The translations under genes and the position numbers were made by a program. Below the pieces are notes generated by a model. That model was not told the DNA's origin. It worked only from the letters and a program-made list of their open reading frames with translations, and made no database searches. From an uncultured Bacillota bacterium (lineage in GTDB: Bacteria; Sysuimicrobiota; Sysuimicrobiia; Sysuimicrobiales; Segetimicrobiaceae), in contig CAWDRG010000009.1 of assembly GCA_963804645.1 (NCBI GenBank), positions 1,248,001 to 1,312,000 on the forward strand: a DNA stretch of 64,000 nucleotides, in the 5' to 3' direction. The first letter of the stretch is position 1; the number at the start of each line of letters is the position of its first letter. Of the stretch, positions 6,371 through 37,625 are shown piece after piece.

Positions 6371-6372
6371 CG

Positions 6373-10672: not shown

Positions 10673-11275
10673 TTAGCCGATGTGGTAGGCGTCCACGCGC
10701 TTCGCCACGACGTCCCAGTCGAGGAGATCGAAGAACTTGTCGAGGTAGGACGCTTTGCCGGTGCCGTAATCGATGAAGTACGCATGCTCGAAACAGTCGA
10801 GGGCGACGAGCAGCGAACAGTTCCAGATCGGGTACGTGTTTTGTTCGTCGCCGATGAAGTTGAACACCTGGCCGGCGTCCCAGTCGTAGGCCGTCCAGAC
10901 CCACCCCCGGGCCGCGACCGCGGTCGCCTTCATGTCGGCCTTCCACGCGTCGAACGATCCGTACGCCTTCTCGAGGAGGCCGTTGACCTTGCCCGACGGC
11001 TTGCCGCCCTTCCCACCGAGCAGCTCGAAATACAGCTCGTGGTTCTTGACGCCCCCGAGCGCGCGGGAGAGCTCGACTTTCAGCTCACGGAGCTCGGAGT
11101 ATGTGGGATTGGCCTTGGAGAGGTCCACCCCGCCGCTGGCGAGCCGGTCGAGGATCTCGTTCGACTTCCCGACGTAGCCCTGGTACAGCTTGTAGTGCTC
11201 CTCCATGGTCCTCTTGCTGATGCCGTTCAGCTCGACGTCGAACGCGCGAAACTTCTTCGCCTCGTACTTTGGCAT
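10673..11275 (-). CDS. Fe/Mn superoxide dismutase family protein
   Basis: H(YKLY), NHELYF, GWVW, DCFEHAY metal ligands; GAGGAGG RBS. Confidence 0.9.
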   Translation of the reverse strand: MPKYEAKKFRAFDVELNGISKRTMEEHYKLYQGYVGKSNEILDRLASGGVDLSKANPTYSELRELKVELSRALGGVKNHELYFELLGGKGGKPSGKVNGLLEKAYGSFDAWKADMKATAVAARGWVWTAYDWDAGQVFNFIGDEQNTYPIWNCSLLVALDCFEHAYFIDYGTGKASYLDKFFDLLDWDVVAKRVDAYHIG

Positions 11276-11379
11276 GCACGATCCCTCCTCTGGGCGTGAT
11301 ACGAGTGACGTGTCTTCCGGCGGGGATGTCGGGAGCACGTTGATTATACGTCCCGCGCACGCGCGCGGGCAAGTCGCGG

Positions 11380-11574
11380 TCAGATGTTCGGGGCGCCGTC
11401 CTCGCGCGTCACGTAGGCCTCTTTCGTGTACGTGCCGCGGCGGCCGCAGTGCGGGCAGGTATGGTAGTTCGCCGCGAACGTCGCCTTGGCGAAGTTGCGC
11501 GTCGCCATCCGGATCCCGGTGTCGAATTCGCGTCCGCACGTCTGACAGTGGACCAGCACCATGAGTCTCGCCAT
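11380..11574 (-). CDS. Small CxxC...CxxC zinc-binding protein
   Basis: CQTCG...CPHCG in 64 aa. Confidence 0.65.
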   Translation of the reverse strand: MARLMVLVHCQTCGREFDTGIRMATRNFAKATFAANYHTCPHCGRRGTYTKEAYVTREDGAPNI

Positions 11575-11581
11575 GCGCGGA

Positions 11582-11959
11582 TTACCCGTGCGCGCCGCGG
11601 CGGGTGCGGGCCGCGGCGATGTCGGCGCGGTGCCAGAGGCGGTACCGGCCGGTTCCGAAGATGGGGGCGGGAAGGTCCGCGGTGCCAGCGGGGTCGAGCA
11701 GCGACGCCGGCGGCACGCCGAGCATCTCGGCGGCTTCGACGACCGTGACAAAGTCGTCGCCGTCGCGCACGAGGCGGCATACCTCAGCCAGGAACGACGC
11801 GTCGGCCGCGGGCCGCGATAGGAAGAACTGGACCGCGCTGCCGCCGCTCGCGTGCGCCTGCTTCGTCAGGTTGGCGAACCGGCGCAACTCATCCGGGTAG
11901 CCCCGCAGGTGGGACAGCACGATGGCATCCAGATCGGGGGCGGCGACGTGTTCCGCCAG
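11582..11959 (-). CDS. Hypothetical protein with C-terminal AlpA/excisionase-like HTH (start uncertain, possibly CTG)
   Basis: VTVVEAAEMLGV...LPAPI..GRYRLWHRADI; AGGAGG upstream of a CTG. Confidence 0.55.
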   Translation of the reverse strand: MAEHVAAPDLDAIVLSHLRGYPDELRRFANLTKQAHASGGSAVQFFLSRPAADASFLAEVCRLVRDGDDFVTVVEAAEMLGVPPASLLDPAGTADLPAPIFGTGRYRLWHRADIAAARTRRGAHG

Positions 11960-12019
11960 CGCGGATCCCTCCTGCGCCTGCCAGGCGCCCGCCCGAACGC
12001 GTGCGGTCTGAGATCGTGG

Positions 12020-12106
12020 TGGTGCCGAAGGGGAGACTCGAACTCCCACAGGCTTTCGCCTACTACGCCCTGAACGTAGCGCGTCTGCCAATTCCGCCAC
12101 TTCGGC
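12020..12106 (-). tRNA. tRNA-Leu(CAG)
   Basis: GCCGAAG acceptor stem, CTACG-TTCAGGG-CGTAG anticodon arm, long variable arm, GTTCGAGTC T-loop, encoded CCA. Confidence 0.97.
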
Positions 12107-12190
12107 ACGCGGCGCTCGAGCGCAAATAGCATACTGGAGCCGGACAGACAGTGTCAAGCAACCGGCGCCGCGCGCGCCGCGCGGCGCGGC

Positions 12191-12874
12191 TCAGCGCGGT
12201 TGCCCGGGATCGTCCGCGAGCGCGGCGACCGTCTCGGCCAGGCGCGTGAGATCGGGGAGCACGCGGGTCGGCCGCACGTCTCCGAGCGGCTCCCCGTGGC
12301 GGTTGATGAAGACGGTGCGGAATCCGAGCGCGCCGGCGGGGACCATGTCGTGGTACAGGCTTGCGCCGACGTGCACCGTCCGGTCCGGGGCGGCGTGCGT
12401 CTGGGCCTGGAACCGTGTCCAGTGGGCCGAGGCCGGCTTGTAGCTGCCGGCGTCCTCCGCGGTGACGATCGCATCCGGCACGCTGCCGAGTTGCGCGATC
12501 GAGAGGGCCAGCAGGTCGCGATCGACGTTCGACAGGATCGCCAGCCGCCGGCCGGCCCGCCGCAGCGCCTGGAGAGCGACCGTGACTTCGGGAAACGGCC
12601 GCCAGCGCGCGAGCGATTCGGGCAGCACCCGCTCGCGGCCCTCCGGCAGCGGGTGGCCGAGGCTCCGCATCAACCTGGCGCTGGCCTCTGCGAGCACGTC
12701 GCGGTACGGCCGGTAGGCCTCGTGCTCGACTTCCGCTTCGACCGCGATGTAGCGGACGGCGAGCGCGCGTCGATCGACCGGCGGCGGCAGCAGCGGCACC
12801 AGCACGTCGGCGACCCCGCCCTCCCAGTCGATGAGGGTGCCGTAGCAATCGAAGGTGACCCATTCCACGGGCAT
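12191..12874 (-). CDS. HAD hydrolase (haloacid dehalogenase type II-like)
   Basis: TFDCYGTLIDW, ILSNVD, SYKP, HVGASLYHD. Confidence 0.9.
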   Translation of the reverse strand: MPVEWVTFDCYGTLIDWEGGVADVLVPLLPPPVDRRALAVRYIAVEAEVEHEAYRPYRDVLAEASARLMRSLGHPLPEGRERVLPESLARWRPFPEVTVALQALRRAGRRLAILSNVDRDLLALSIAQLGSVPDAIVTAEDAGSYKPASAHWTRFQAQTHAAPDRTVHVGASLYHDMVPAGALGFRTVFINRHGEPLGDVRPTRVLPDLTRLAETVAALADDPGQPR

Positions 12875-13063
12875 CGGCGCACACGTTCGGCGAACGCGGC
12901 GGGCAGTCCTGTGGATTCGGGCATCAACGTTTGTCCCCGTGCGTTCTTGGGTAAGTGTGAGGTACTTCTGCAGTGTTTCGGAGCGTGACGTCGCCGGCGG
13001 TGGTCGGGGCGACGCCGGGCGGCGGGATGCGGTGGTTGGACGAAGTGGCGGGGGGACGGGCAC

Positions 13064-13660
13064 ATGATGGCAGCCAATACCCACACCAAAGGGCAGGTGT
13101 GGCTCGATCGTCCGGCGATGATCAGCGGACTGCGGGTCACCGTGGTCATCTGGATGGCCGTGGCGCTCTCCGGATGGGCCGCCGCCTGGGCGGCGTACTC
13201 GCACACGCTGTCCGCGCAGCAGAGCGCCGCGCGCATGGCGTCGATCGCGGGGCTGACCCCGGTGTCCGGGCCCGGCGTCGAGGTGGTGCTGTCCGATTCC
13301 ACGCGCGCGCTCGCCCCGGGCGACAGTCCGAGTGAGCTGCTCGTGCAGGACAGCGACCTGGTGTTTCTCGAGATGGCACTGTGGTACGGGGGCGCCGAGG
13401 CCGTGGCGGTCAACGGCGTGCGGATCACCGCCAAGACGTCGATCGTCTCGGCGGGGCCCACGATCGTGGTGGACGGACACCGGCTGGTGGGGCCGTTCCA
13501 CATCACGGCCGTGGGAGATCCCAGGCTCCTGCGGGGTGTGCTGATGACCCGCGAAGGGTACGCGGCGCGGCTCCGCGAATTCGGGCTCAACCTGCAGATC
13601 GTCGACCGGCCCCACCTGACAGTGCCGGCCGCGGCAATGGGATCGTCCACCCAGCTCTAG
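13064..13660 (+). CDS. DUF881 family protein
   Basis: AGLTPVSGPGVEVVLSD, GAEAVAVNG.RI, PFHITAVGD. Confidence 0.85.
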   Translation: MMAANTHTKGQVWLDRPAMISGLRVTVVIWMAVALSGWAAAWAAYSHTLSAQQSAARMASIAGLTPVSGPGVEVVLSDSTRALAPGDSPSELLVQDSDLVFLEMALWYGGAEAVAVNGVRITAKTSIVSAGPTIVVDGHRLVGPFHITAVGDPRLLRGVLMTREGYAARLREFGLNLQIVDRPHLTVPAAAMGSSTQL

Positions 13661-13712
13661 CCCGCCGCCGCATCACGGGGCGGAACACGGCAGTCGGAGG
13701 AGGGGAGGAACT

Positions 13713-13976
13713 ATGGGGATCCTGGCCTGGATCGTGGTGGGCATCATCGCGGGGTGGTTGGGGAAGATGGTCGTCCCGGGGGAAGGCCCGGGAGGTATCC
13801 TCGGCGACTTGGTCGTCGGCATCGTCGGCGCGCTGATCGGGGGGTGGCTGTTCACGTCGTTTGGGCATGCGGGCGTGACGGGCATGAACATCGGATCGAT
13901 CATCGTGGCGTTCATCGGCGCGGTGATCCTGCTTTTGATCATGCGCGCGCTCACCGGGCGGCGTTCGGTCGCGTAA
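13713..13976 (+). CDS. GlsB/YeaQ/YmgE stress-response membrane protein
   Basis: WIVVGIIAGWLG...GIVGALIGG...IGAVILL. Confidence 0.92.
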   Translation: MGILAWIVVGIIAGWLGKMVVPGEGPGGILGDLVVGIVGALIGGWLFTSFGHAGVTGMNIGSIIVAFIGAVILLLIMRALTGRRSVA

Positions 13977-14074
13977 CGCCGTTCGGCGCGGCGTCGCCGC
14001 GCGGGTTCCGGACACGGGTCCCCGGCCTTCCAGGCCGAGGGCCCGTGTGCTGTGTGTGCGGGCCGTCGGCCGTG

Positions 14075-15346
14075 TTAGGGCCGTTCGGCCCGCGGCATGT
14101 TGAACGCGTGCAGGCTCGGCATCAGCCCGAGCGCGCACAGGGGCAGGATCGCGCCCGCGATGGCGAGTGCCACGGGGAGCCCGAGGACGGACGCCACCGC
14201 GCCGATGCCGAGTGCGCCGAGCTGGTTCAGCCCAAACGTCGCGTAGTACAGCCCGAGGACGCGGCCGCGCATGTCCTCGCGCGCGCTGACCTGCAGCACC
14301 GTCGCCATCGTCGCATCGTACGTGCTGCCCACGTACCCTACCAGCGTCACGAGCACGAGCGACGGGAGCAGCCACGGCGAGAGGCCGAACAGCATGACGC
14401 CCACGCCGAACGCGATCGCGGACGCCACCAGCACCGTCCCCGTGTGCGCCACGTCGCCGCGGGCCGCGACGCGCAGCGTCGCCGCCAGTTGGCCGACGCC
14501 GCCCATCGCCGCGAGGTAGCCGAGTCCAAGCGCGCCGACCTTGAGCACGTCGCGCGCCATGACCGGCAGCATGTACTGGTACGAGAAGCCAAACGACTCG
14601 ATCACCAAGCTGAGCCCGAGCAGCCCGCGGACCGCCGGCGCTCGCACCGCGTACCGCAGCCCCTCGCGCACGGCCGCGACGAGGGGTTCGGTGCTCCGCC
14701 GCAGCGGCCGGGGATTGTGGAGGGCGAACAGCGCGCCGATGCCGATCACGTACGCGGCGCAGATCACGAGGTAGTTCTGGCCGACCCCCGCGCGCGCGAT
14801 GATCGCGCCGCCCGCAAGCGCGCCGAGGATCCTTACGATGCTGCCGGCCATGAACTGAAACGCGTTGGCGTTCAGCAGGCGCTGTTCGCCGACGACGTCG
14901 TAGACAAGGCCGTTCGTCGTGGGCTTGCCGACCGCGAACGCGCAGCCGGCGAGCGCCGCGTAGAGCAGCACGTGCCAGAGCTGGACGCGCTGGGCGAGGA
15001 CCAGGACCGCGAGGGCGAGGGCAAGCGCGGCGGAGGCGGCCTGCGTGATCAGCAGCAGGGACCGCCTGGGCAGGTAATCGGCGAACGCGCCCCCGGCGAG
15101 ACTGAACAGGCATTGGCTCGCGCCCCGCACGCCCGCGGCGAGTCCGACCCAGAGCGGCGACTGCGTCAAGATGAGCACCAGCCATCCCTGGCTGATGAGG
15201 TCGACGGTCTGGGTCATCGACGTGCAGAGCGTATTGATCCACAGCCAGCCGTATCCGGGGGCGTCGAACGCGTGGGAGAAGCGGGTGGGCCGAGCGAGCC
15301 TCAGGGGCCATCCTCCACGGGGGGCTGCGCCCGTCGGCAGGCGCAC
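14075..15346 (-). CDS. MFS transporter (H+ antiporter / DUF894-like); start uncertain
   Basis: Multiple TM segments; GWLVLILTQSPLWVG, GGAFAD..PRR, MRGRVLG. Confidence 0.85.
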   Translation of the reverse strand: MRLPTGAAPRGGWPLRLARPTRFSHAFDAPGYGWLWINTLCTSMTQTVDLISQGWLVLILTQSPLWVGLAAGVRGASQCLFSLAGGAFADYLPRRSLLLITQAASAALALALAVLVLAQRVQLWHVLLYAALAGCAFAVGKPTTNGLVYDVVGEQRLLNANAFQFMAGSIVRILGALAGGAIIARAGVGQNYLVICAAYVIGIGALFALHNPRPLRRSTEPLVAAVREGLRYAVRAPAVRGLLGLSLVIESFGFSYQYMLPVMARDVLKVGALGLGYLAAMGGVGQLAATLRVAARGDVAHTGTVLVASAIAFGVGVMLFGLSPWLLPSLVLVTLVGYVGSTYDATMATVLQVSAREDMRGRVLGLYYATFGLNQLGALGIGAVASVLGLPVALAIAGAILPLCALGLMPSLHAFNMPRAERP

Positions 15347-21127: not shown

Positions 21128-21275
21128 GCATCCACGAGCTTGGTTGGACGTCTGACGCAGGCCTGTGGCGGCGGCGGGCGAGGTGGAGACGGCCCATCGG
21201 GAGTCTCCCGGAGCATGCGGCACACGGCAGACGGTGTCACGAGCCACATACCACGAACGTGTCGGAGGTGACGGC

Positions 21276-21680
21276 GTGCTGAACCGAATCCAGTTGATCG
21301 GACGGCTGACCCGGGACCCAGAGCTGCGCTACATTTCGAGCGGACAGCCGATGGCCCAGTTCACGCTGGCCGTGGATCGCGACTTTCGGAACACGGAGGG
21401 CGAACACGAGGCCGATTTCATTCAGTGCGTCACCTGGCGCACCCTTGCCGAACAAGTCGGCCAGTACTGCGCCAAGGGGCGGCTCGTCGCGGTGGAAGGA
21501 CGGCTCCAGACGCGCAGCTATGAGGCACAGGACGGCACCCGCCGGAAGTCCACCGAGGTGGTCGGCGACCGCGTGTGGTTTCTCGACCGTCCCCGTGGGG
21601 ACGCGCGCGCCGACGCGCCCGACGAGGAGACCGTGCCTGATGCCCTCGCCGAGGCGGAGGACCCGACGCCCTCGCACTAA
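21276..21680 (+). CDS. ssb: Single-stranded DNA-binding protein (short, no DDIPF tail)
   Basis: LNRIQLIGRLTRDPELRY, ADFIQCVTW, VEGRLQTRSY; GGAGG RBS. Confidence 0.93.
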   Translation: MLNRIQLIGRLTRDPELRYISSGQPMAQFTLAVDRDFRNTEGEHEADFIQCVTWRTLAEQVGQYCAKGRLVAVEGRLQTRSYEAQDGTRRKSTEVVGDRVWFLDRPRGDARADAPDEETVPDALAEAEDPTPSH

Positions 21681-22043
21681 CGCAGTCCGCGTGTTGATCG
21701 ACTGCTGATGCCGTTGCGTGGACGGGGCACCCGTTGTGGTGGACGTTCCTCCCCCCTCCGGAGCGTCGGGCGCCCGCGGCGCCCCCTCGTCCACCAGCGT
21801 CCACAGTGGTACGCAGGGTAGGGCGCGCGGTTTGAGCGCGCGATGCCCACTGTAGTTCCGGTCGTGTCCCCTCGCGCCGTCTAGGCGCGCGCCACTTTCT
21901 GTCCCGCGTTTCCCCTTCGCCTGCGCCGCCCCGAATTCGGGCGCGGCGCAGGTCTCGCCATGCCCTCGCCGTCCTGGCCTCGGCCGCGTCCCCGACGTCT
22001 CGCATGCGCTCGTCATCACACGCATCGAAAGGAGATGATCGCC

Positions 22044-22928
22044 ATGGCATCTGCTCCGGCCGCGGCCTCGCTGCTGCGGTTGACGTCGCGCGACCGCCTG
22101 CTGGTCACACTGCTCGCAGAGCTTCGGTATCTCACGGTGCACCAGGTCCGGCAGGCATGTTTCCCAACGCTCTCGAGCCGAGCGGCCTCGCAGCGGCTGT
22201 CACTGCTTCGCGGCCGCGGGGTGCTCGACTGCCTGCGCCACCGCACGTTCGACGACCGCCGGGCGTTTTGGGGGCTCGGCGCGCTCGGGCGCGCCGCCGC
22301 CGCAGCGCTCTCCGACGGCATCCCGCTCCGTCCGGCATCGGTGGTGGTGGGCGCGCTGTTGATGGACCATCTCGTGGCGACGAACCAGATCTTCTGCGAC
22401 CTGTGCGGCGCGTGGCGCGCCGGAGGGCTCGCACCCTTCTCATGGGTCGGCAGCCACCACGCGCGCGTGGATCTCGGACTGACGCATGTGGTGCCTGACG
22501 CGATGATCATCGTCCCCGGCCGTCGGGGCGAACGATGGCTGTACTGCCTCGAGCGCGATCGCGGCACGATGTCCGCGGACGCGCTGGCCGACAAGTTCGC
22601 TCGGTACCGGCTCATGCACGAGCGAGCCCGCGAGCACCGGGGCGACCCGCTGTGGGATGCCCTCGCCGATTCGTGCCTCATGGTCGCCTGCGACGACGAG
22701 CCGCGGGCGGTGCGGGCCGCCGGGCTCGCCGCCGCCGCCGGCCTCGACCGTGTGTGGGCCGGCCTTGCGCAGGACTGCGCGGCGTCGCTGGCCGCGGCTG
22801 TGGAGTGTCCGGGCGGCCCGGAGGGCGGAGACCGCGCGTTCTCGGTCCGGCTGTCCGGGGTGCTCGGGGGCGTTCTCTACCCGCCGGAGCCCCTGGGGAC
22901 CGGCGCCGGCGCGGGAGATCCGTCATGA
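22044..22928 (+). CDS. Replication-relaxation (Replic_Relax) family protein
   Basis: LTSRD...LRYLT..Q winged-helix N-terminus; HLVATN; PDA...LERDRGT nuclease-like motif; AAAGGAG RBS. Confidence 0.8.
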   Translation: MASAPAAASLLRLTSRDRLLVTLLAELRYLTVHQVRQACFPTLSSRAASQRLSLLRGRGVLDCLRHRTFDDRRAFWGLGALGRAAAAALSDGIPLRPASVVVGALLMDHLVATNQIFCDLCGAWRAGGLAPFSWVGSHHARVDLGLTHVVPDAMIIVPGRRGERWLYCLERDRGTMSADALADKFARYRLMHERAREHRGDPLWDALADSCLMVACDDEPRAVRAAGLAAAAGLDRVWAGLAQDCAASLAAAVECPGGPEGGDRAFSVRLSGVLGGVLYPPEPLGTGAGAGDPS

Positions 22929-24520
22929 AGCGCCGGGGGCTTGTCCTCGGTGGTCTGGTCGCGGCCTGCGGCGCGCTGGTCGTGCCGTCCCCGGGCAGCT
23001 GGTGGCTCGCCGGATGCGCGTGCGTGTCGATCTTGCTGGGGACACTCGGGACGGCGGACGCCGCCGGACGCGATCTGCCGCCGATCGCCACCGCGTCGTG
23101 GGCCGCGTGGTCCGAGGCGCGAGGATTCGCATCCCCGGGTCCGTTTCTGCTCGGGATGTGGCCCGGCGGCTCGCGACGGCTCTACCTCGGCGAGGAGCAG
23201 GTGTCGGGGCATGTGCTGGTGCTGGGCCCGTCGAGGTCCGGGAAGACCGCGGGCGCGATCGCGCCCAACATTCTCATGCGGGATCCGGCCCGGGAGAGCA
23301 TCATCGTGATGGACGTCAAGACCGGCCCGCGCGCGCTCTGGAACGTCGCGGCGGGCCGGTACGGCGATCGCGCCCACCTGTTCTGTCCGCTCTTCGAGGG
23401 GTCGGTCGGATACAATCCGCTCGACGACGTGCGCTCGATCGGCACGGCGCAGCGCAAAGCCGCGCTGCTGGTGCACAACACGACGCCGCGAGATCTGTCG
23501 GGCGACGCGCGGGTGTACACGGGGGCCGCGCGGGACCTTGCCGCGCTCCTGTTCCTGCACGTGCAGCAGGATCGTGAAGCGGGAGGGCACACCGTGGGGG
23601 CGGTGTACCGGCTGCTGCTCGGGGGCGCCGCCGCCGTCCGCGACGTACTGAGGGACAGCCGGATGCCCGAGGTGCGGGAGCGGCACGGCATGTTCGCGGC
23701 GCGGGAGCGTCGGGTGCAGGAGGCGGCAGTCACCGGGCTGCTCGAGCGCCTCGCCCCGTGGGCCGACCCGCTCATCTGCGACGCGACCGCGTCGCACTGG
23801 GATCTTGGGCGCCTCGGACGGGAGCCGATCGCCCTCTTCATTCTCCTGCCCGAGGACGAAGCCCAGCGGCTGCAGCCGCTCATTGCCTGGCTCGTCGCGG
23901 ACCTGCTCGACGGCCTCATCACACAGGCGGATCAAGACGGTCTCCGGTGCCCGGTCCGGATGTATCTGGACGAGTTCCGCCGCTTCGGCTATCTCTCCGG
24001 GCTGAGCGACCGGCTCGCCACGCTGCGGGAGCGGCGCGTCAGCGTCGTGCTCGGTCTGCAGGTCCTCAGCCAGCTCGAAGAAGTGTACGGCCCCAGGGAA
24101 GCGCGGACGCTGCTCGGCAACACGGAAACCAAAGTGATCTTTCGGGCCGGCGATCTCGAGACCGCTCGGATGACGAGCGCGTGGCTCGGGAATACCGCGG
24201 TCCCGTCCGTCTCGGTCACGCACGGGGAGCGGTCGGGGCGCAGCGCGACGATCCGCCCGTATGTGCGCCCGCTGGCCCCGCCCGAGGACCTCGTGCGGAT
24301 GCCGGAGCGCGCCGTGATCGTGCTGACGGGGACCGCGCGGCCGCTCGCGCTCTGGCAGGCGCGCTACTACGAGGCGGACGATCTCGCCGCGGTCGCGCCC
24401 CCCTTTCCGCTGCGGCGGCGTACGGGTCCGGTGCTCCCGCCGGCGGTCGGTCCCTCGCGCGGCGCCCGCGCGACGCCGCGTGCCGGGGCCCCGCGGCCGT
24501 CGGGCGGCGTGCGCCTGTAA
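22925..24520 (+). CDS. Type IV coupling protein (VirD4/TraG/TraD-like)
   Basis: Two N-terminal TMs; Walker A GPSRSGKT; DVK; YNPL; YLDEF; Q.LSQLEEVYG; GNT; ATGA overlap with the upstream gene. Confidence 0.9.
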   Translation: MKRRGLVLGGLVAACGALVVPSPGSWWLAGCACVSILLGTLGTADAAGRDLPPIATASWAAWSEARGFASPGPFLLGMWPGGSRRLYLGEEQVSGHVLVLGPSRSGKTAGAIAPNILMRDPARESIIVMDVKTGPRALWNVAAGRYGDRAHLFCPLFEGSVGYNPLDDVRSIGTAQRKAALLVHNTTPRDLSGDARVYTGAARDLAALLFLHVQQDREAGGHTVGAVYRLLLGGAAAVRDVLRDSRMPEVRERHGMFAARERRVQEAAVTGLLERLAPWADPLICDATASHWDLGRLGREPIALFILLPEDEAQRLQPLIAWLVADLLDGLITQADQDGLRCPVRMYLDEFRRFGYLSGLSDRLATLRERRVSVVLGLQVLSQLEEVYGPREARTLLGNTETKVIFRAGDLETARMTSAWLGNTAVPSVSVTHGERSGRSATIRPYVRPLAPPEDLVRMPERAVIVLTGTARPLALWQARYYEADDLAAVAPPFPLRRRTGPVLPPAVGPSRGARATPRAGAPRPSGGVRL

Positions 24521-29383: not shown

Positions 29384-29459
29384 GCGCCCGTAGCTCAGCG
29401 GATAGAGCGTCGGCCTCCGGAGCCGTAGGTCGGGGGTTCAAATCCCTCCGGGCGCGCCA
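29384..29459 (+). tRNA. tRNA-Arg(CCG)
   Basis: GCGCCCG/CGGGCGC acceptor stem, CGGC-CTCCGGA-GCCG anticodon arm, GGTTCAAATCC T-arm, CCA. Confidence 0.97.
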
Positions 29460-29527
29460 TATTTTATTAGGGTTTCTGCGCGTAGTCGTGCTAGCGTTCG
29501 GCTACTCCTGATAACGGATTGATAACG
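29430..29527 (+). repeat. att-like repeat R0 (tRNA 3' end plus arm)
   Basis: TCGGGGGTTCAAATCCCTCCGGGCGCGCCA + TATTTT...GTTCGG...CTGATAACGGATTGATAACG. Confidence 0.9.
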
Positions 29528-29725
29528 TCGGGGAGAAAAGCCGGCAGATGCGCCTTCTCCGCCGAGGGGCCGATGATGTCTTTCGAGAACGGTCTCGCGG
29601 ATAAATCATTCAGATGAACAGTATTCCCCCGCAAGAGCGCAGACTTACCATTTAGTCACAGTTTTTGCCCACCGTAGGATAAAGGTGAAATCCGGCGAGA
29701 TCCTGGTTCCGCGCGGGGTGAGCGC

Positions 29726-30397
29726 ATGCGAAGGTTCGCAGCAGGGGTCACGATTTTACTTGCGATCGTGATGATGCTCGCGCTAAAGGATGCGCGAGCC
29801 AATTTGATCACCAATGGAAGTTTCGAGACGCCATTGGTACCGGTGGGGAACTTTACGAACTTCTTGACCGGGAGTACGTTAATCACCGGTTGGACTGTTA
29901 CGGGGCCAGAAGTCTCCGTAGTGAGCGGCACGTTTACCCAGTCCGGCTTCACCTTTCCTGCCCAAAATGGCAATCAGTGGCTTGACCTCACCGGAGATGG
30001 GACAAATTCGTTTGAAGGCGTGGTGCAAACGGTCAGCACGACACCGGGAACAAACTATGATTTGTCCTACTGGGAGGGGAATGTGTCCGGGGGGGTTTTT
30101 GGCACTACAAGTACGGTCGAAGTACAATTGAACGGTGTGTCTGCTGGTTCTGTGACGAACAGCACCCCGGGCACCACGTTGACCTGGCAACAGTTCGCCC
30201 TTCCGTTCACGGCGACCGGCGCCACGACGACAATCGAGTTCGACAATCTTGACCCCAGCAATGACAACTCCAACGGCCTCGACAACGTGGATTTGGAACT
30301 CGCAAGCACATCACCGGTTCCGGAGCCGTCTTCGCTCTTGTTGCTGGGTTCTGGATTGTTCGGGTTGGCCGGCTTGGTGCGGCGTCGCTTCGCCTGA
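29726..30397 (+). CDS. PEP-CTERM protein with DUF642-like carbohydrate-binding domain
   Basis: Signal peptide; NLITNGSFE...WLDL...LDNV; VPEPSSLLLLGSGLFGLAGLVRRR. Confidence 0.9.
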   Translation: MRRFAAGVTILLAIVMMLALKDARANLITNGSFETPLVPVGNFTNFLTGSTLITGWTVTGPEVSVVSGTFTQSGFTFPAQNGNQWLDLTGDGTNSFEGVVQTVSTTPGTNYDLSYWEGNVSGGVFGTTSTVEVQLNGVSAGSVTNSTPGTTLTWQQFALPFTATGATTTIEFDNLDPSNDNSNGLDNVDLELASTSPVPEPSSLLLLGSGLFGLAGLVRRRFA

Positions 30398-30425
30398 CTA
30401 AGTTGATGTGCCGGTTCAGATAGAA

Positions 30426-30523
30426 TCGGGGGTTCAAATCCCTCCGGGCGCGCCATATTTTTTACGGGTTCCTGCGCGTAGACGTGCTGGCGTTCGGTTG
30501 TTCCTGATAACGGATTGATAACG
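30426..30523 (+). repeat. att-like repeat R1
   Basis: Gapless 98-bp match to R0; first 36 bp identical; 9 mismatches by hand count. Confidence 0.95.
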
Positions 30524-30561
30524 GCACCCGAGTCGCAATCATGGACCCATGGAGAGTAACG

Positions 30562-31038
30562 ATGGCCAGCAATATCAGCAAATACGTCGTTCTGAATGAG
30601 GGCGATGGTTTGAGGTTTCAATCCGGGCCGGGTCGGGACCTGATTTTCAAGGTCACGGGCGAGGACACAAACGGAGCGTTCGATTACTTCATCGTCGAGG
30701 TGGCCCCGCATGGCGGCCCGCCGCTGCACGTCCACCACGCGCAGGAAGAGACCATCCACGTGCTGAAGGGCCGCTTCAAGATACGCATCGGCGACTCGAT
30801 TTCCACACTCATTGAGGGCGGCTTTGCTTATCTGCCCTCCAAGGTGCCGCATGCCTTCCTGAACCTGACCGATGCGGGTGGCGAGATTATTGTGGTCTAC
30901 ACGCCCGGCGGCGGGCACAAGTTTTACGAAGAGTTGGGGCCGGTCAGCCGGAGCGCGTCGCCGGACCGGCAGAAGATCGCGGCGGTGTTTGAGAAGTATG
31001 GCATGACCTTGCTGGGCGGACCCTTGACGGCGGATTAG
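30562..31038 (+). CDS. Cupin domain protein (quercetin dioxygenase-like)
   Basis: GPPLHVHHAQEE...G...PSKVPHAF. Confidence 0.9.
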   Translation: MASNISKYVVLNEGDGLRFQSGPGRDLIFKVTGEDTNGAFDYFIVEVAPHGGPPLHVHHAQEETIHVLKGRFKIRIGDSISTLIEGGFAYLPSKVPHAFLNLTDAGGEIIVVYTPGGGHKFYEELGPVSRSASPDRQKIAAVFEKYGMTLLGGPLTAD

Positions 31039-31083
31039 AACGAGTTCCAACCCAAAAGGCTGCGTCCACCGCCGCTCTATCGC

Positions 31084-31165
31084 CGGGAGTTCAAATCCCA
31101 GGGCGCGCCGTATCTTATCAGGGTTCCCGCGTAGTCGTGCTGATGTTCGGTCGTTTCTGATAGCG
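31084..31165 (+). repeat. att-like repeat R2 (degenerate)
   Basis: CGGGAGTTCAAATCCCAGGGCGCGCCGTATCTTATCAGGGTTCCCGCGTAGTCGTGCTGATGTTCGG...CTGATAGCG. Confidence 0.85.
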
Positions 31166-31478
31166 TACGCGCGCCTTCCCGAATGTCCGCGTTGGCAAGT
31201 TGGCTTTCAACACATGCTGACTTTGACGACCTTCGCACCGGCTTGCAACCCAATGTCGTTGCCAGAGGCTGGCTATCGGCCTGGTTCCTTCGTCCGAGTG
31301 TTGGAATCATCCCTTAGGATGGCGGACCCGGAATTGTTGCGCGCTAATGAACTAGTTCGAGGGTTCGGTGTTCCCCCCCCCAAAGGAGGATGGACAATAT
31401 AGTGAGACGATGAGTAGGAGTGAAATAGACGGATGCCCGAATGGAATACGGTGTTGGCGGTAAATTTGGAGGTCAAAA

Positions 31479-32405
31479 ATGTTGAATCTCCGGCCGCTTA
31501 GTACCTGTATTCTCGCTCTGGCTGCGATCGTCACGGTGGGCTTCGTGAAAGCCGCATCAGCTGATGTTGTCACCCTGGATAACTTCACGGTCACACTGAA
31601 TGGCACGACGATCTTCGACGATTCGTTCGGTGCAGGTCTGACGCTGGCGGGGGGCAATCCCCCCGGTGCAATTCTGCCGTCGGGGCAGAACTTTTCTAAT
31701 GGCACGCCGGCAAACTACGGGGTCATCGGGACGGTAACCGAAACCGGAAACAGGGCGATACTAGATTCAGCGCTCGGAGCCAATTTCGCCGGGGGGCTCG
31801 CTAAACTCAATAACACCGACCTTCAAACAGGTCCGCCGATCTCTCCCTTCTCCTTGACGCCGAACGACGCTTTCACGACAACCGCCTTGTACAATCTCAC
31901 CGTGCCCTCGAACGTCGGTGGGTTTTATCAAGTCGAACTCGCAAGCAGCACCGCCTCGAATAGTGGGGATGGGATGGGCGACGTTGTCTCGGTCGACGTT
32001 TGCACCCCGCCGCAGTTTGGCGGTCCACCACTGTGCGGGTCGGCTACCGCCCCCAGCATTCAACTATTTGATCGCAACTTTGCCGCCAATACAGGGACCG
32101 TTATTGGTCAGGCTCCGCTGGTCACCAGCAATCAACAGATCCTCTTTGAGCTTTCCCATCCTACTCCCGGGACACCCGATGTCTTCGGATCGTATGCCTA
32201 CGTGAACGGAGGCGTCGAAGGTCCCTTGACGCCTCTCGGGGACTATACCGGCCTGTTCCAGGGCCTGAACTACACTCAACCAGGCTTTACACAGTTGACT
32301 GTTACCCCTGAGCCGTCATCGCTTATGCTACTGGCCTCATCGATCCCAAGCGTTCTTGGGTTTGCGTGGCTCAGGCGTCGGAAGGCGGCTGGCTGCCGGT
32401 CCTAG
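31479..32405 (+). CDS. PEP-CTERM protein
   Basis: GGAGG RBS; signal peptide; TPEPSSLMLL...LRRRK. Confidence 0.88.
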   Translation: MLNLRPLSTCILALAAIVTVGFVKAASADVVTLDNFTVTLNGTTIFDDSFGAGLTLAGGNPPGAILPSGQNFSNGTPANYGVIGTVTETGNRAILDSALGANFAGGLAKLNNTDLQTGPPISPFSLTPNDAFTTTALYNLTVPSNVGGFYQVELASSTASNSGDGMGDVVSVDVCTPPQFGGPPLCGSATAPSIQLFDRNFAANTGTVIGQAPLVTSNQQILFELSHPTPGTPDVFGSYAYVNGGVEGPLTPLGDYTGLFQGLNYTQPGFTQLTVTPEPSSLMLLASSIPSVLGFAWLRRRKAAGCRS

Positions 32406-32548
32406 ATCAAGACACGGACTTGAGACCGTATTGGCGCCGGGCAACGTGCCGCTTGTTCCTGCGGGCGGCGCGCCCCGGCGCTGCACTGCCGAACGTGTTT
32501 ACTCCGTGGGTGAGAATCTACTCGATGGACTTCCGCCGAGTTCACCAA

Positions 32549-32637
32549 TCGATCCCGTCGGGCGTGCCATATTTTTCACGGGTTTCGGAGCCAGCGCGTG
32601 TTGGTGTTCGGCCAGTCCTGATACCGGATTGATAACG
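32549..32637 (+). repeat. att-like repeat R3 (divergent core)
   Basis: TCGATCCCGTCGGGCGTGCCATATTTTTCACGGGTTTC...GTTCGG...CCTGATACCGGATTGATAACG. Confidence 0.85.
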
Positions 32638-32662
32638 GGAGTGGGCAGATGGGGGGACGTTC

Positions 32663-33004
32663 TTGAAGCGACGAGTCGCCGATAGTCCGCTTCGAAAGGC
32701 CACCACGATCCGACTCGCCGGCAGCCTGTTTGTGAAGTTTCTCGCGCCAGATCCCAACCTCCCGATTTACCCGAACTCAGCGTTCAATCTGAAAGTCAGG
32801 ACCGTACCTAACGCCGCATGCGTTGCATCCCACGGCGCGCCTTTTGACGCCACGATTTCGCGGCCGAAACAAAACGCGGACAAAAGCGGGCATGTCGCGT
32901 GGTTTGTCAAGAACGGGAGTGCGAGCGGCTTGCGCACCGTGACGGTCACCTGCACCCAAAGCGGTAAGAAAGGCATACTGTACTTCTCCTGGGTTACCGC
33001 GTGA
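32663..33004 (+). pseudogene. Probable 5'-truncated homolog of the secreted protein at 33927-34307
   Basis: Shared VxT....C...AD..G.V.W...G.RTV.V.C pattern; no signal peptide or good start. Confidence 0.5.
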
Positions 33005-33280
33005 CGGCACGGGGACGACAAACCGGGGAAGTAGCGCAGGGCAGCGGCTCAGGGCACGGGATTCTAGAATCGCGAAGCGTCCGACAGATGCTTGGTGGAC
33101 CTCCAACGCGTGCTGGTGTTCAGCCGTTCCCGCAGCACGGATGGATCGTTGGACCCGAATCAACCGTGAGAAAGGGAAGACCTACCTCATATTCTGCCCG
33201 TGCAGTGGATCCCGCAGGAGAGTTAGGCCCGAGATCGATCAGGGAGGAGCGCAGGGGGAAATGCGGAAACCTCCGCCGGG

Positions 33281-33673
33281 ATGCTGTCTATTGGACCTCC
33301 GGGTTGGGTGGTGACATCGTGTCACGGAGGGGCGTGCGTGTGCCCTTCGGTCCCGACGCACTATCCAGATTGCTTCCTTATCTGGGGGTGGATCGTCCTG
33401 CTACTGGTGACCGCCCTCCTGCTCGTCGCGTTCGGGTTCTCCGTACGCTCGCGCTTTCTGACGCCCCCCGCATCGCTGAGCGCGTCTCAACGACTGCAGC
33501 GCCAACGGAGTTTTTGGATCGTCATGTTCGGGGTGATCATCGGGCAAGGCGTCGTCATCCTGGCGACGCATCAATCCGTGAATTCCTACGTCACGCTGCT
33601 GGTCCTGGCCGCCGCTGTAGGCATTGCCTACGTCATGTGGTCGCGCTCCCTTAGACGCCGGAAACCATTATAG
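33281..33673 (+). CDS. Small membrane protein (about 3 TM, Cys-rich N-terminus); start uncertain
   Basis: Three hydrophobic segments; basic C-terminus. Confidence 0.55.
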   Translation: MLSIGPPGWVVTSCHGGACVCPSVPTHYPDCFLIWGWIVLLLVTALLLVAFGFSVRSRFLTPPASLSASQRLQRQRSFWIVMFGVIIGQGVVILATHQSVNSYVTLLVLAAAVGIAYVMWSRSLRRRKPL

Positions 33674-33926
33674 ACGGGTGGCGTGTAGACGTCCGAGCCG
33701 AGAGGTCCGAGCGTCTCTTGTTTCATCCGGGCGCCGCGACTAAACGTCGTCTATTAGCCCCAGGGTCGGGCCGCTCTACAACAGCCTTCGGGTAGCCGGG
33801 TTCAAATCTCGAGCGCACCGATGGTCGAGTCCCGGCGACACGCGGTCTGTCAGATTCGTTCTGACCCCATGAAGTGTGAGGGCCCAGACGGAGTCCGGGC
33901 CCCTTTCATCGTCGGCTCGCCCGACG

Positions 33927-34307
33927 CTACTGGACGTCGTATCCCACCTCCAGGCCCACGGTGCCGGACGCGTTCTTGCAGAATACGTGAACCGTCCGAT
34001 GCCCCTTCGGGAAGTTCATGCCGAGTTTCCACGCCCAGGTCACTTTGCCTTGGTCATCAGCTTGGACGTTGGGCAGATGGTACTCTGACGGGGCTCCGCC
34101 CTTGGCGCTTCCGCCGGGTTGCGCACCCTGGATGTCACCCGAACACGTCGTTCCAGTCTGCGTCTGCACAACGAGCTGTTGGGAACCTCCGGATGCGATC
34201 GGCGATACAATCGATACGAGCGTGACCGTGAGCGCATCGGCAAAGCTTGGCCCCACCGCGACGGTGACAGCCGCGAAGATCGTGAACACGACAGCGAGTG
34301 CACGCAC
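33927..34307 (-). CDS. Small secreted protein, predicted beta-rich with two Cys
   Basis: AAGGAGG RBS; signal peptide MRALAVVFTIFAAV...SFA. Confidence 0.75.
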   Translation of the reverse strand: MRALAVVFTIFAAVTVAVGPSFADALTVTLVSIVSPIASGGSQQLVVQTQTGTTCSGDIQGAQPGGSAKGGAPSEYHLPNVQADDQGKVTWAWKLGMNFPKGHRTVHVFCKNASGTVGLEVGYDVQ

Positions 34308-35016
34308 GCCAGTCCCTCCTTATGTGCCGTTTGCGAGCGGGCCTCTATTCGGCTCGCGCGGGGACTCCTCCTTGCGGACATCGCATGATCCCGGCAACGT
34401 CGACCGCGGGGTGCTGGTCGACCTCGCGGCTCGATCGTATGGAGGGAATCAACTGAGTCTGAAGAACGAGGCGATAGCCGCACACAGGATCGGGCGCGCG
34501 ACGTTCACAACCTGGCGTGCGCTGCGTACGGGAGGCATATGATGACAGCTTCTCGGAAGAGCAAGCGGAAGGCTGTCGCGGCGAGTGGCCGCAGCACAGC
34601 ACGCCCGCCCGGAGGAGCCGCGTGGCGTCGACCGCCCGCGCGGCGAAGGCCAAGCCGGCGATTCTGATCAATGAGAAATCCGTGCGGTCGCGCCCACGTC
34701 CGGCGCGGAAGCGCCGCCCGTAACGAGACCACACGCCGAGAATCGTCGCCGCCTGGCTCATGGTATTTCAATCGCGGCGATATCTATCGTCTCGACCGCT
34801 CCCACGTCTCTGCACACTCGCCTTCGCGACCGCCGCGTCGGCGGTGTTCTTGGGGCGTTTTGTTCGACGATCGGCGGCATGATGTCGTCTGGGGCACGCC
34901 GCGTGACTCTGCGGGTGGGCTCGTGACGGTGCGTGGCTTCGCGGCTGTCGGAGGTGCGCGCCCCGGGGCATGGTCCGCCGTCTCCGAAGCGGTCGTGAGA
35001 GGTCGTACGGGAGGAG

Positions 35017-35379
35017 ATGATGCCGATGGGCGTTGGTGGGATCGCGATGTGGTACATTCAGTCGATCTACGCGGAGAACGAGGACTTTTCGTTCACGCAT
35101 GATATCGAGTTCGCTCCCTCCAGCATCGGGGCCACCGGGTTCGGGAACTACCTGATGGTGAGCGGATCGCCAAACTACTACTATATTGGCGTCAGCGAGT
35201 ACCGCACCCGCGACCCCGAGACCGGCGTGGATACCGTCCACACCTTCGGGACGAGTTACGGCACCGTCGCGCCGGCGTTCTTCGATAACAACGTGGACAG
35301 CGTGACCTACGCGATCGGCCTCGGGAATTCCAACTGGGTGTGGATCAACGTGACGATGCAGCTGTTCTTCTTCGACTAG
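35017..35379 (+). CDS. Hypothetical protein (aromatic, beta-rich)
   Basis: GGAGG RBS; GC3-biased codons; protein-like composition. Confidence 0.7.
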   Translation: MMPMGVGGIAMWYIQSIYAENEDFSFTHDIEFAPSSIGATGFGNYLMVSGSPNYYYIGVSEYRTRDPETGVDTVHTFGTSYGTVAPAFFDNNVDSVTYAIGLGNSNWVWINVTMQLFFFD

Positions 35380-35389
35380 GGGGCGCGCC

Positions 35390-35707
35390 ATGATGATGAT
35401 GGGGCACGGGAAAATCATTGCTCCGGAGGCGAGCTCGATCTGCGTGCTGTACGATCCGGCGGATGGCCGGATTCTCCACATGCATCGGGTGACGACGCTG
35501 CCCGGCGGCCGCAGGATGGACGCGAAAGCAATCGAGGCGCGCGCGTTCGAGCTTGCCAAGCAATGCGGCGCGGACGTGTCTCGGGCGCACGCGCTGCAGG
35601 TCGATCCGCGGGACGTCACGCCGAGTGTGCCTCACCGGGTGGATGTGCGGACACGGCGCCTCGTGGTGCGGCCGGGCGGCATCCCGTCCAAGTGGGGGCG
35701 CGGTTGA
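35390..35707 (+). CDS. Hypothetical protein
   Basis: 10 nt after the previous gene; VLYDPADGRILHMH. Confidence 0.65.
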   Translation: MMMMGHGKIIAPEASSICVLYDPADGRILHMHRVTTLPGGRRMDAKAIEARAFELAKQCGADVSRAHALQVDPRDVTPSVPHRVDVRTRRLVVRPGGIPSKWGRG

Positions 35708-35870
35708 TCCACGCGACCCCGCTCGCGGGCGACGAACCGAACGGGCGGAACACCCAGGAAGTCCCGGCGGCGCATCTCGAACACGATCCGGCGTGCGTGT
35801 GGGTCGCCGTGGGCGGCGGCCGCGCGGCACTGCGGCGCGTGGTCGAGAACCCGGGTATTGGGGGAGCGTA

Positions 35871-37625
35871 ATGGCAGACGCGTCGAGCCTGCAGCCTTGG
35901 CGAGTGGATCAGATCGGCGGCATGACGGTGGAATGGGATCTTGGCATTCCGATGGACGACGGCCTCGTGCTCCGCGCCGACGTATTCCGCCCCGCGGCGC
36001 GGGGCCGGTACCCCGTGATCCTGACCTACGGACCGTACGCGAAGGGCCTGCCGTTCCAAGAGGGGTATCCCGATCAGTGGCGGCGTCTCAGCCAGAACCA
36101 TCCGGAGGTGTGCCGCGGCTCGACGTGCCGTTTCCAGACCTGGGAGGCGGTTGATCCTGAGAAGTGGGTACCGGACGGCTATGTTTGCGTGCGCGTCGAT
36201 TCGCGGGGCGCAGGTCGCTCGCCGGGTTTCTTGGATCCGTTCTCGCCGCGCGAGACCCGGGATTTCTACCTGTGCATCGAATGGGCGGCGGAGCAGCCCT
36301 GGAGCACGGGAAAGATCGGGCTGCTCGGAATCTCCTACTACGCCATCAATCAGTGGCACGTGGCCGCGCTGCGCCCGCCGCACCTGGTCGCGATGTGCCC
36401 CTGGGAGGGGGCCGCGGAGTGGTACCGGGACATGACGCGGCACGGGGGGATCAAGACGACGTTTTGGGACAACTGGATGACGAAGCAGGTGGTGACCGTG
36501 CAGCACGGTCGCGGCGACCGGGGGCCGCGTGACCCGAATACCGGTCTGACGGTGGCCGGCCCGGAGACGCTGTCGGAGGAGGCGCTCGCCGCGAACCGCG
36601 CCGATCTGCGGCGTGCCGTCCTGTCGCATCCGCTCGACGACGCCTATCACCGGGAGCGGTCTCCGGATTGGACGCGCGTCACGGTCCCGTTTCTTTCCGC
36701 GTCCAATTGGGGCGGGCAGGGGCTGCACCCGCGCGGGAACGTCGAGGGATTCGTGCGGGCGGCCAGCGCGGAGAAGTGGCTCGAGGTGCACGGGTTGGAG
36801 CACTGGACGCACTTCTATACGGACTACGGGGTGGCGCTGCAGAAGCGGTTCTTCGATCACTACCTCAGAGGCATCGACAACGGCTGGCAGGACCAGCCGA
36901 AGGTGCTCCTGCAGGTGCGTCATCTGGACCGGTTCGTGCCCCGGACGGAAGACGCGTGGCCGATTCCGCGTACGCGGTGGACGCGCTTCTATCTCGACGC
37001 CGCGGGCTCGGCGTTGTCGCGCGAGACGGTCCCGGCGGGCGCCTCGGCCGAGTTCGAGGCGCTGGGGGAGGGCGTCACGCTGTCGTCTGCGCCGCTCGAG
37101 CGCGACACCGAGCTCACGGGGCCGGCGGCGGCGAAGCTGTTCGTGTCGTCGAGCACGGTCGACGCGGACATCTTCGTCGTGCTGCGCGTGTTCGACCCCC
37201 AAGGCGGCGAGGTCGACTTTCAAGGGGCGCTCGATCCGCACACGCCGATCGGCAACGGGTGGCTCAGGGCGTCGCACCGGCGGCTCGACCCCGACCTGTC
37301 CACGCCGTGGCGCCCATACCACAGTCACGACCGGGCGGAGCCGCTCGTCCCGGGGCAGGTCTACGAGCTCGACGTTGAGATCTGGCCGACCAGCCTCGTC
37401 GTGCCGCGGGGCTACCGGATCGCGCTCACGATCCTGGGGAAAGATCTTGAACGGCCCGGTCCCGGCCTGCAGATCAAGAGCTTCGCCGCGCCCTTCCGAG
37501 GGTCCGGGCCGTTCCTTCACACCGATCCCGAAGATCGTCCGGCCGCCGTCTTTGGCGGGCGGACCACGCTCCACACCGGCGGCGCGCACCCCTCGTTTCT
37601 GCTGCTGCCCGTGATCCCCAATTAA
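35871..37625 (+). CDS. CocE/NonD family hydrolase
   Basis: LRADVFRP, VDSRGAGRSPG, GKIGLLGISY, VEIWPTS. Confidence 0.92.
   Translation: MADASSLQPWRVDQIGGMTVEWDLGIPMDDGLVLRADVFRPAARGRYPVILTYGPYAKGLPFQEGYPDQWRRLSQNHPEVCRGSTCRFQTWEAVDPEKWVPDGYVCVRVDSRGAGRSPGFLDPFSPRETRDFYLCIEWAAEQPWSTGKIGLLGISYYAINQWHVAALRPPHLVAMCPWEGAAEWYRDMTRHGGIKTTFWDNWMTKQVVTVQHGRGDRGPRDPNTGLTVAGPETLSEEALAANRADLRRAVLSHPLDDAYHRERSPDWTRVTVPFLSASNWGGQGLHPRGNVEGFVRAASAEKWLEVHGLEHWTHFYTDYGVALQKRFFDHYLRGIDNGWQDQPKVLLQVRHLDRFVPRTEDAWPIPRTRWTRFYLDAAGSALSRETVPAGASAEFEALGEGVTLSSAPLERDTELTGPAAAKLFVSSSTVDADIFVVLRVFDPQGGEVDFQGALDPHTPIGNGWLRASHRRLDPDLSTPWRPYHSHDRAEPLVPGQVYELDVEIWPTSLVVPRGYRIALTILGKDLERPGPGLQIKSFAAPFRGSGPFLHTDPEDRPAAVFGGRTTLHTGGAHPSFLLLPVIPN

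Follow-up and report, generated by a model that had tools for sequence, protein, structure and literature searches.

Tandem att-like repeats and small integrase-less units behind a tRNA-Arg(CCG) gene of an uncultured Bacillota bacterium

We analyzed a 64,000-nt stretch of DNA (the window; G000:C9:1248001-1312000, where G000 denotes the window's genome, which is 96.8% complete) in which a tRNA-Arg(CCG) gene is followed by direct repeats of its own 3' end with small cargo genes between them. This array is probably a tandem accretion of small elements, now integrase-less and resembling cis-mobilizable elements (CIMEs), at an integration hot spot formed by the tRNA gene. Most likely, it is not a new gene-capture machine but what repeated insertions have left behind at a hot spot of a known kind, and the repeats are, judging from their sequence, attachment (att) sites of a tyrosine-integrase family. 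The first-pass annotation, made from the letters of the window alone, had offered two options, an integron-like cassette array or the residue of serial integrations; the second was found to be the more likely of the two, and the proposal of att-type sites anchored on the tRNA, with small units lacking an integrase, was supported.

Repeats and units behind the tRNA gene

The repeat unit consists of the last 30 nt of the tRNA (the core) and a 68-nt stretch behind it (the arm), and direct copies stand at R0, R1, R2 and R3 (Table 1). R0 (29430-29527) and R1 can be aligned without gaps at 91% identity (89/98), the first 36 nt being identical, which confirms the 98 bp with nine mismatches of the first-pass annotation. 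R2 shows 76-84% identity to the unit over blocks of 25-38 nt, and its arm diverges past the first TGATAGCG, while R3 shows 67% identity over 98 nt (32540-32637), with a good arm and a degenerate core. A BLAST search of the 5.3-Mb genome with the 98-nt unit detected four copies (E 1.4e-45, 3.0e-33, 6.1e-12 and 1.1e-11). The T-arm core motif GGTTCAAATC has three matches in the window (29435, 30431 and 33799), where 0.09 were expected, and none of 100 shuffles reached three. BLAST and the motif count thereby bore out the direct order of R0-R3 at the tRNA and the core remnant near 33797, as reported earlier. A sixth copy, R3b, was absent from the earlier list, and it divides into two what had been described as one unit with a fragment plus a membrane gene. 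The decay of the repeats is graded with the distance from the tRNA, from the intact R0 and R1 through the worn R2 and R3 to the relics R3b and R4.

Direct repeats of the tRNA 3' end (R0-R4) bound the inserted DNA, and the composition of the array is unlike that of its host, with a GC content of 54-63% over 29.0-35.5 kb against mostly 64-76% on both sides and about 69% in the genome. A second tRNA-Arg(CCG) was called by ARAGORN at G000:C9:79789-79864, within an apparent protein-coding stretch, and is probably a false call.

The units bounded by the repeats are 0.5-1.5 kb in size and lie within this low-GC tract. All five cargo frames are on the strand of the tRNA, as in a row of integron-like single-gene units, and each arm has a co-oriented frame 17-300 nt behind it. 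The distance from the cargo stop codon to the next repeat is 28 nt in unit 1 (30397 to 30426), 45 nt in unit 2 (31038 to 31084) and about 95-140 nt in units 3-5; the first two values and the shared orientation had been given correctly in the first-pass annotation. The closest family match of the cupin of unit 2 is only 35% identical, and the second PEP-CTERM protein (unit 3) had no match in the 22 other family genomes. PEP-CTERM proteins need an exosortase, and one is encoded in the window's genome. Contigs from RNA libraries fall on 31970-32156 (unit 3) and on 34049-34299 (the minus-strand frame of the distal tail), a weak hint that the array is expressed.

Table 1. Features of the array and the far edge of the variable interval (positions in the window)
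Feature	Position	Strand	Remarks
tRNA-Arg(CCG), anchor	29384-29459	+	ARAGORN; Rfam RF00005, 67.6 bits
R0 core, last 30 nt of tRNA	29430-29459	+	
R0 arm (P'-type)	29460-29527	+	tandem TGATAAC-N4-TGATAAC at 29509-29526
Unit 1: secreted DUF642 protein with PEP-CTERM sorting tail, 223 aa	29726-30397	+	Pfam PF04862 2.7e-14, PF07589 1.6e-06
R1: 30-nt core identical to tRNA end, plus arm	30426-30523	+	arm-type sites 30505-30522
Unit 2: cupin_2 protein, 165 aa	30541-31038	+	Pfam PF07883 7e-14
R2: core (80% over 25 nt) and arm with first arm-type site only	31084-31171	+	
Unit 3: second PEP-CTERM protein, 308 aa	31479-32405	+	PF07589 7.9e-4, just under curated cut-off
R3: degenerate core and well-kept arm	32538-32637	+	arm-type sites 32619-32636, 1 mismatch
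Unit 4: putative frame, 113 aa, no family match	32663-33004	+	
R3b: degenerate arm copy	33100-33145	+	arm profile E 0.0016; unit profile E 0.015
Unit 5: small membrane protein, 130 aa	33281-33673	+	61-65% aa relatives behind arm in G004 and contig L066
R4: relic of the core with T-arm motif, no arm following	33797-33823	+	
Distal low-GC island tail, unnamed frames	33824-35500	.	
Secreted 126-aa frame in distal tail	33927-34307	-	
Methyltransferase, ancestral tRNA neighbour in relatives, far edge of variable interval	63269-63979	-	66% aa to G007 gene

Short-read assemblies break at repeats of about 100 nt, the related contigs are in many cases short, and the array of the relative G013 is split over contigs; the array of the window might thus be a metagenome-assembly artefact of collapsed or chimeric repeats. 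We regard this as extremely improbable. On an independent metagenome contig, L152, a repeat copy is flanked by the DUF642 gene end and the cupin gene start at 100% protein identity, which places it at R1, and a collinear array lies on a 267-kb contig of G004, the closest relative, which belongs to the same genus. In public data, the stretch is covered by peat-metagenome runs, available as low-depth contigs (Logan, depth about 3-5), and four of these runs were compared. Among their contigs, one spans the junction of the cupin end with R2 and another that of the PEP-CTERM end with R3, and a third begins at the first bases of R1 and enters the cupin gene, although the junction-bridging contigs may stem from the sample behind the assembly.

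The arm as a putative integrase-binding site

The arm ends in the tandem site TGATAAC-N4-TGATAAC (the TGNTAACGG tandem of this att family), in which the two TGATAAC sites are spaced one helical turn. In the whole genome, the tandem occurs only at R0, R1 and R3 and in one arm copy on contig C15; one further match with two mismatches was taken as chance. The arm-only copy on C15 was considered as a second kind of site and rejected, since it is severed by a 2.28-kb insertion sequence. This insertion sequence, with a 585-aa frame without a Pfam match, is present in four copies (C15:376.0-378.26, C15:294.0-295.8, C17:298.5-300.3 and C10:178.1-179.9 kb), three of which are identical in protein and one 99.8% identical, and the 20 kb of L058 (G000:C15:368300-388299) are rich in mobile DNA (IS110, Mutator and ISAZ013 transposases and two group II intron reverse transcriptases).

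Tandem sites of such a sort are held by the arm-binding domain of lambda-type tyrosine integrases. The arm of the window reads as the P' arm of a lambda-type attP, which an integrase would bind, because tandem sites are found at the same offset in the integrase islands of two relatives. G001 has at its tRNA-Arg(CCG) an island of 10.4 kb that encodes a type I restriction system and, adjoining the far tRNA copy, a 378-aa PF00589 integrase; the tandem CTGTAGCCAA lies about 45-65 nt past the CCA and is repeated in the opposite arm. In G013:C270, the 3' end of an integrase gene is followed by the tandem TTGGACACGG and then by a tRNA-Arg core, and the same tandem lies about 48-68 nt past the CCA, in a stretch that can be aligned to positions 2-92 of the unit profile. 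The tandems of these sister islands are 9-10-mers at the offset of the TGATAAC tandem, and three att families (those of the window, G001 and G013:C270) share one layout with three different arm sites. The island of G001 (L045 = G001:C64, about 4000-14464) looks complete, with genes for a deaminase, hsdR, hsdS, hsdM, a HEPN protein and the integrase between the bounds of a 48-nt tRNA repeat.

Related motifs are also found beside other tRNA genes. Close variants of the G013:C270 tandem, TGCTAACGG-N-TTGCTAAC, lie about 50 nt past tRNA-Ala(CGC) in G009, and similar motifs were detected ahead of a tRNA-Ala fragment in G007 and over the 3' end of a decayed integrase gene beside tRNA-Val(CAC) in G012 and G014.

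The co-oriented frame behind every arm, and a promoter-like match (TTGATA-16-AATCAT, 9/12) which begins in the R1 arm, would also be expected if the repeat were a functional cis element, such as a terminator, a promoter, an RNA-processing signal or a tRNA-like tag, copied between genes. However, the alignment of 12 arms gave no supported structure (consensus -3.4 kcal/mol, with a compensatory change in 1 of 11 predicted pairs), and Rfam at a permissive E matched only the tRNA and noise, leaving the arm unmatched. Neither promoter-like sites (3 against 1.6 in shuffles) nor terminator-like sites (5 against 4.8) were in excess. With a layout like that of the integrase att sites of relatives, and with the foreign composition of the region, a cis element is very improbable. 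The lack of an Rfam match and of a supported fold also led us to reject the arm as an RNA element. Another candidate, in which the arm is the 3' end of an integrase gene, was discarded, as the matching peptide is explained by the shared DNA motif alone.

Relatives of the array and the tRNA hot spot

A sequence-only model of the arm family found members in 6 of the 23 family genomes and in 6 of the 94 order genomes, in two genera; five of the six arm-bearing genomes supplied sequences to the model, and G017 is an independent match. (The order-wide counts include one unpublished genome, G034, on which no claim rests.) G004 has three arm copies behind the tRNA, G015 has one arm, and G013 has the tRNA with an arm on a 5.1-kb contig and three further copies on another contig. 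In G017, an arm is followed by a gene of 215 aa and a core, and one arm-only copy is present in addition. In G006 (L034:8954-9469), the tRNA and P' arm are followed, after about 0.3 kb, by an opposite arm and a second core, giving an 'empty' unit of about 0.48 kb with no gene. A motif scan of metagenomes gave at least 119 loci; among the matches listed, 12 were true arms, none of them on a contig longer than 2.5 kb, and six more had the motif only. One of the metagenome contigs, L066, has the membrane-protein unit directly behind a tRNA copy, with the 5' part lost at the contig start. An exact-pattern scan of species genomes gave five loci, three of which (from two assemblies) coincide with the loci of G013 and G015; the remaining two, from Flavobacteria, were taken as chance.

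In G013, G006 and four of the 12 metagenome contigs with arms, a longer core of 48 nt is preceded by a conserved arm on the opposite side (P arm), about 110-130 nt in length. The sequence differs on both outer sides of the P-arm-bearing copies, and the same tandem site stands ahead of the P arm of this family in G013. The remark of the first-pass annotation that the units leave little room for an opposite-side arm therefore holds for the window, whose units have no P arm, but not for the units of the arm family in relatives and metagenomes. The window's genome has a P-arm-like relic at G000:C1:700-850, where the P-arm motif (CCGGTGATCGTCRCGA) stands twice behind a TAACGGACTGATAACGG site, with no tRNA core after it.

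The interval between the tRNA and the methyltransferase gene is a family-wide hot spot, because the distance between the two varies from 46 nt to 34 kb, and the array is its youngest, still foreign-looking part. At the 11 relative loci where the methyltransferase gene was found, the distance is 46 nt in G007, about 80 nt in G009 and 1.5 to about 10 kb in the nine others; it is 34 kb in the window. The upstream side is syntenic, with a phosphatase gene at 17 of the 20 fetched tRNA loci, a glycosyltransferase gene (60% identity or more) at 12 of the 20 and an M48 peptidase gene also being common. Gene content was seen to vary unit by unit between the compared tRNA-Arg(CCG) loci, as the first-pass annotation had anticipated, and this argues against a fixed content. 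In the other genus, Imm1-family immunity proteins are encoded in the variable interval (L040:5757-6146 in G015 and L054:4421-4804 in G017), which hints at immunity genes of polymorphic toxins as cargo there. On the other side of the tRNA, 5-8 kb upstream, genes for SSB, Replic_Relax and a type IV coupling protein (TraG/VirD4-like) lie in DNA of normal GC content (window 21165-24520) and may be the remnant of a conjugative module or a resident one.

The flanks of the array in G004 are about 85% identical to those of the window in DNA sequence. The order in G004 is the tRNA, an IS481-family insertion, an arm, the DUF642/PEP-CTERM gene (93% aa identity), the repeat U1, the membrane-protein gene (61% aa identity), the repeat U2, other genes and an S15 peptidase gene, the last of which is shared with the window (35553-37625). 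The cupin unit and the second PEP-CTERM unit are absent from G004. The membrane-protein unit shows 72% DNA identity between the two genomes and is far more diverged than the flanks. In U1, an R1-like core is joined to an R3-type arm, as would result if the DNA from R1 to R3 were deleted or if a site of this sort received an insertion; the likeness of the U2 core to that of R3 was too weak for use.

A hybrid such as U1 would also be expected from unequal crossing-over, and R0 and R1 have 36 identical bases in common; both could reflect local duplication or homologous recombination of the tRNA 3' region, with unrelated genes inserted between the copies and no site-specific recombination. This explanation leaves unaccounted for the foreign composition and the private cargo of each interval, the tandem arm sites in common with integrase islands, and the arrays of the same family with different cargo in two genera, and there is little chance that it is correct.

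Unit 1 can be dated relative to its hosts. The DUF642 gene was found in 2 of the 94 order genomes, and unit 1 adjoins the tRNA in both G000 and G004. The gene shows 93% aa identity between the two, with a dS of 0.21 and a dN/dS of 0.18, indicating that the unit is under purifying selection, whereas the dS values of three flanking genes are 0.51, 0.65 and 0.65. Because of this difference in dS, unit 1 is judged younger than the split of its hosts, as seen in this single genome pair. The 198-nt spacer ahead of the gene is 91% identical. The homology ends 8 nt past the stop codon, the next 20-35 nt being unalignable, and the part of the arm ahead of the tandem site is only about 68-78% identical, against about 91-93% for the rest of unit 1 (one pair, 40 nt). 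As for the first-pass suggestion that the newest unit stands next to the tRNA, the age of unit 1 is in agreement with it, but two private units sit in the middle of the array.

An IS481-family insertion about 12-15 nt past the CCA, between core and arm, is found in three of the six arm-bearing genomes (L030:11258-12476 in G004, L040:3113-4012 in G015 and L054:95-1057 in G017) and likewise in at least two contigs from metagenomes (L117 and L146). The transposase gene of this element has a copy in the window's genome about 0.3 kb past tRNA-Arg(TCT) (G000:C19:54963-55895), and the end sequence of the element abuts tRNA-Arg(TCG) there (G000:C11 near 131900). The element looks like an insertion sequence that targets the stretch right behind Arg tRNAs.

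Origin of the units and present mobility

If the array arose by tandem accretion, small elements of one att family would have been inserted serially at the tRNA 3' end by site-specific recombination, each insertion restoring the tRNA and leaving a copy of its last 30-48 nt (the core) with the element's own P' arm. Older units would have been displaced away from the tRNA and would have decayed in order. The integrase would have been lost after, or along with, the serial integration, and the units would now hold cargo only, as CIME-like remnants. We infer in this scheme the order of insertion, the binding of the integrase to the arm and the manner in which the integrase was lost.

Several observations weigh against accretion followed by decay. 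There is no integrase fragment anywhere in the 6-kb array and no P-arm relic in it (P-arm profile, E 0.1 or better). The arm family is never found beside an intact integrase gene in the six genomes and 12 contigs (most contigs <2.5 kb, longest flanks about 10 kb), so that the tyrosine integrase which the first-pass annotation proposed to look for beside the same arm elsewhere did not turn up. The sister att families of the same layout do end ordinary integrase-bearing islands. Random deletion would have to trim several elements neatly to give stop-to-repeat gaps of 28, 45 and about 95-140 nt. The young age and the sharp end of unit 1 look as if a unit of about 1 kb, integrase-less, had moved as such, and the unalignable stretches between its stop codon and the next core in G000 and G004 are unexplained by a clean crossover inside the core.

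Some of these observations would be explained if the units had been born small, as circles of about 1 kb with a core, a P' arm and one gene but hardly any opposite arm, captured at the tRNA or any resident copy by an integrase acting in trans from another locus or from a visiting element, which would amount to tRNA-anchored, integron-like gene capture. The recurrence of single-gene units (five here, two in G004 and one in G017), the direction shared by the five cargo frames and the tRNA, the 28-45 nt between the stop codons of units 1 and 2 and the next core, and the age and sharp right end of unit 1 are all in its favour, as are the cupin and second PEP-CTERM units, which are private to the window's genome. 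The membrane-protein unit also stands in different places (the fifth in this array, the second in that of G004, and next to the tRNA copy at the start of L066), no arm of the family adjoins an integrase gene, and the array has neither an integrase nor a P-arm relic. On the other hand, there is no candidate for the integrase in trans, since phage-type integrases are present only as fragments and the intact recombinases are core genes. The private units lie in the middle of the array and not beside the tRNA, a long opposite arm is present elsewhere in the arm family, and the 'empty' two-arm unit of G006 resembles decay. Only a single genome pair has a unit in common, and in this pair the arm of unit 1 ahead of its tandem site is less alike than the rest of the unit. 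Weighing these points, we consider capture of units born small unlikely, and it is quite unlikely that the units are minimal cassettes (one gene, a P' arm and a core derived from the tRNA, nearly without an opposite arm) that pass between bacteria of peat and are captured, at the tRNA or a resident copy, by an integrase in trans. The integron-like machine of the first-pass annotation was not supported: the genome has no cognate integrase and the arm no conserved attC-like hairpin.

Tandem accretion with integrase-less remnants is, in the accounts given by two sources, one of them a preprint, an already described process (PMC5704250; 10.1101/2020.12.28.424599). Streptococcal CIMEs are described there as keeping their att sites but no integration or transfer genes, and as undergoing tandem accretion with integrative and conjugative elements (ICEs) or integrative and mobilizable elements (IMEs) (PMC5704250). 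Like the array, they lie in tandem at the 3' end of the target gene, separated by att copies (PMC5704250). Each unit of the array likewise lies between two core copies, with the P'-side arm only, and has no integration or transfer genes. The array differs from CIMEs in its units of 0.5-1.5 kb with one gene, in having only the P'-side arm, in its up to six copies and in the lack of a functional partner element. As to an origin by decay of ICEs or IMEs, the array has no integrase or P-arm relic, and P arms are present in relatives of the arm family.

Prochlorococcus tycheposons are described as integrating serially at one tRNA, which pushes older elements inward and gives a hypervariable island with niche genes (10.1101/2020.12.28.424599). 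Their islands resemble the array in the partial tRNAs and degenerate remnants scattered in them (10.1101/2020.12.28.424599). According to the same description, tycheposons have their own integrase and in most cases a module for replication, and their remnants include fragmented integrases (10.1101/2020.12.28.424599). The array has partial tRNAs but neither integrase nor replication genes, and compared with tycheposons as described there, no integrase fragment is left, whereas the conserved arm is kept with every copy.

Lambda-type tRNA islands, present in full form in G001 and G013, share with the array the duplicated tRNA 3' end and the tandem sites, putatively of arm type, about 50-70 nt from the core. 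Unlike them, the array has no integrase within the DNA that the repeats bound and no opposite arm, and it has many copies instead of one attL/attR pair. The one-way row of small, co-oriented, mostly single-gene units with a recombination-site-like repeat is reminiscent of integrons; however, there is no intI, no attI-promoter platform and no attC-like folded palindrome, and the repeat is tRNA-derived and precedes the gene. The tmRNA gene of Dehalococcoides reportedly has several islands in tandem between repeated 3' ends, and these are said to be multi-gene islands, many with their own integrase.

If tandem accretion is correct, the array is a clean, graded example of how accessory genes for surface proteins and enzymes collect at a tRNA hot spot in an uncultivated lineage of peat and soil, and att arms can outlive their integrase. 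If the units instead move as integrase-less single-gene modules, site-specific gene capture of integron grain would exist outside integrons, as an integron analogue anchored on a tRNA and based on an att site of the lambda type. The defined site (the core with the TGATAAC tandem) makes the question of mobility directly testable.

The window itself encodes no recombinase that we could find, as the first-pass annotation had stated: none of the 11 PF00589 hits of the genome lies inside it, and none of the 55 frames scanned with Pfam (10 + 45) matches a recombinase or transposase family, although not all small frames were included in the scan. Elsewhere in the genome, phage-type integrases are present only as fragments (C11:25.6 kb, C17:13.0 kb and C8:110.3 kb). 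A 404-aa recombinase on C2 was considered as an integrase acting in trans and rejected, being a core gene in 21 of the 23 family genomes whose presence does not track the arm. Because the window's genome has no intact matching integrase, the array is probably inert there unless a helper element arrives. Excised circles with R0xR1 junctions, for which the first-pass annotation had proposed a search, did not appear; no circle or unit-deletion joints were seen in the four low-depth runs, which are too thin to support or refute mobility. Two weak skips in the run contigs (30800->30882 and 32950->33408, with sides of 30 and 21 letters) were treated as noise. The same genome has, at tRNA-Arg(TCG), an ordinary decayed island of about 10 kb (G000:C11:121829-131990), headed by the tRNA, in which pieces of a broken integrase gene lie at 124.6 and at 127.7-128.2 kb and the far tRNA copy at 121829-121874.

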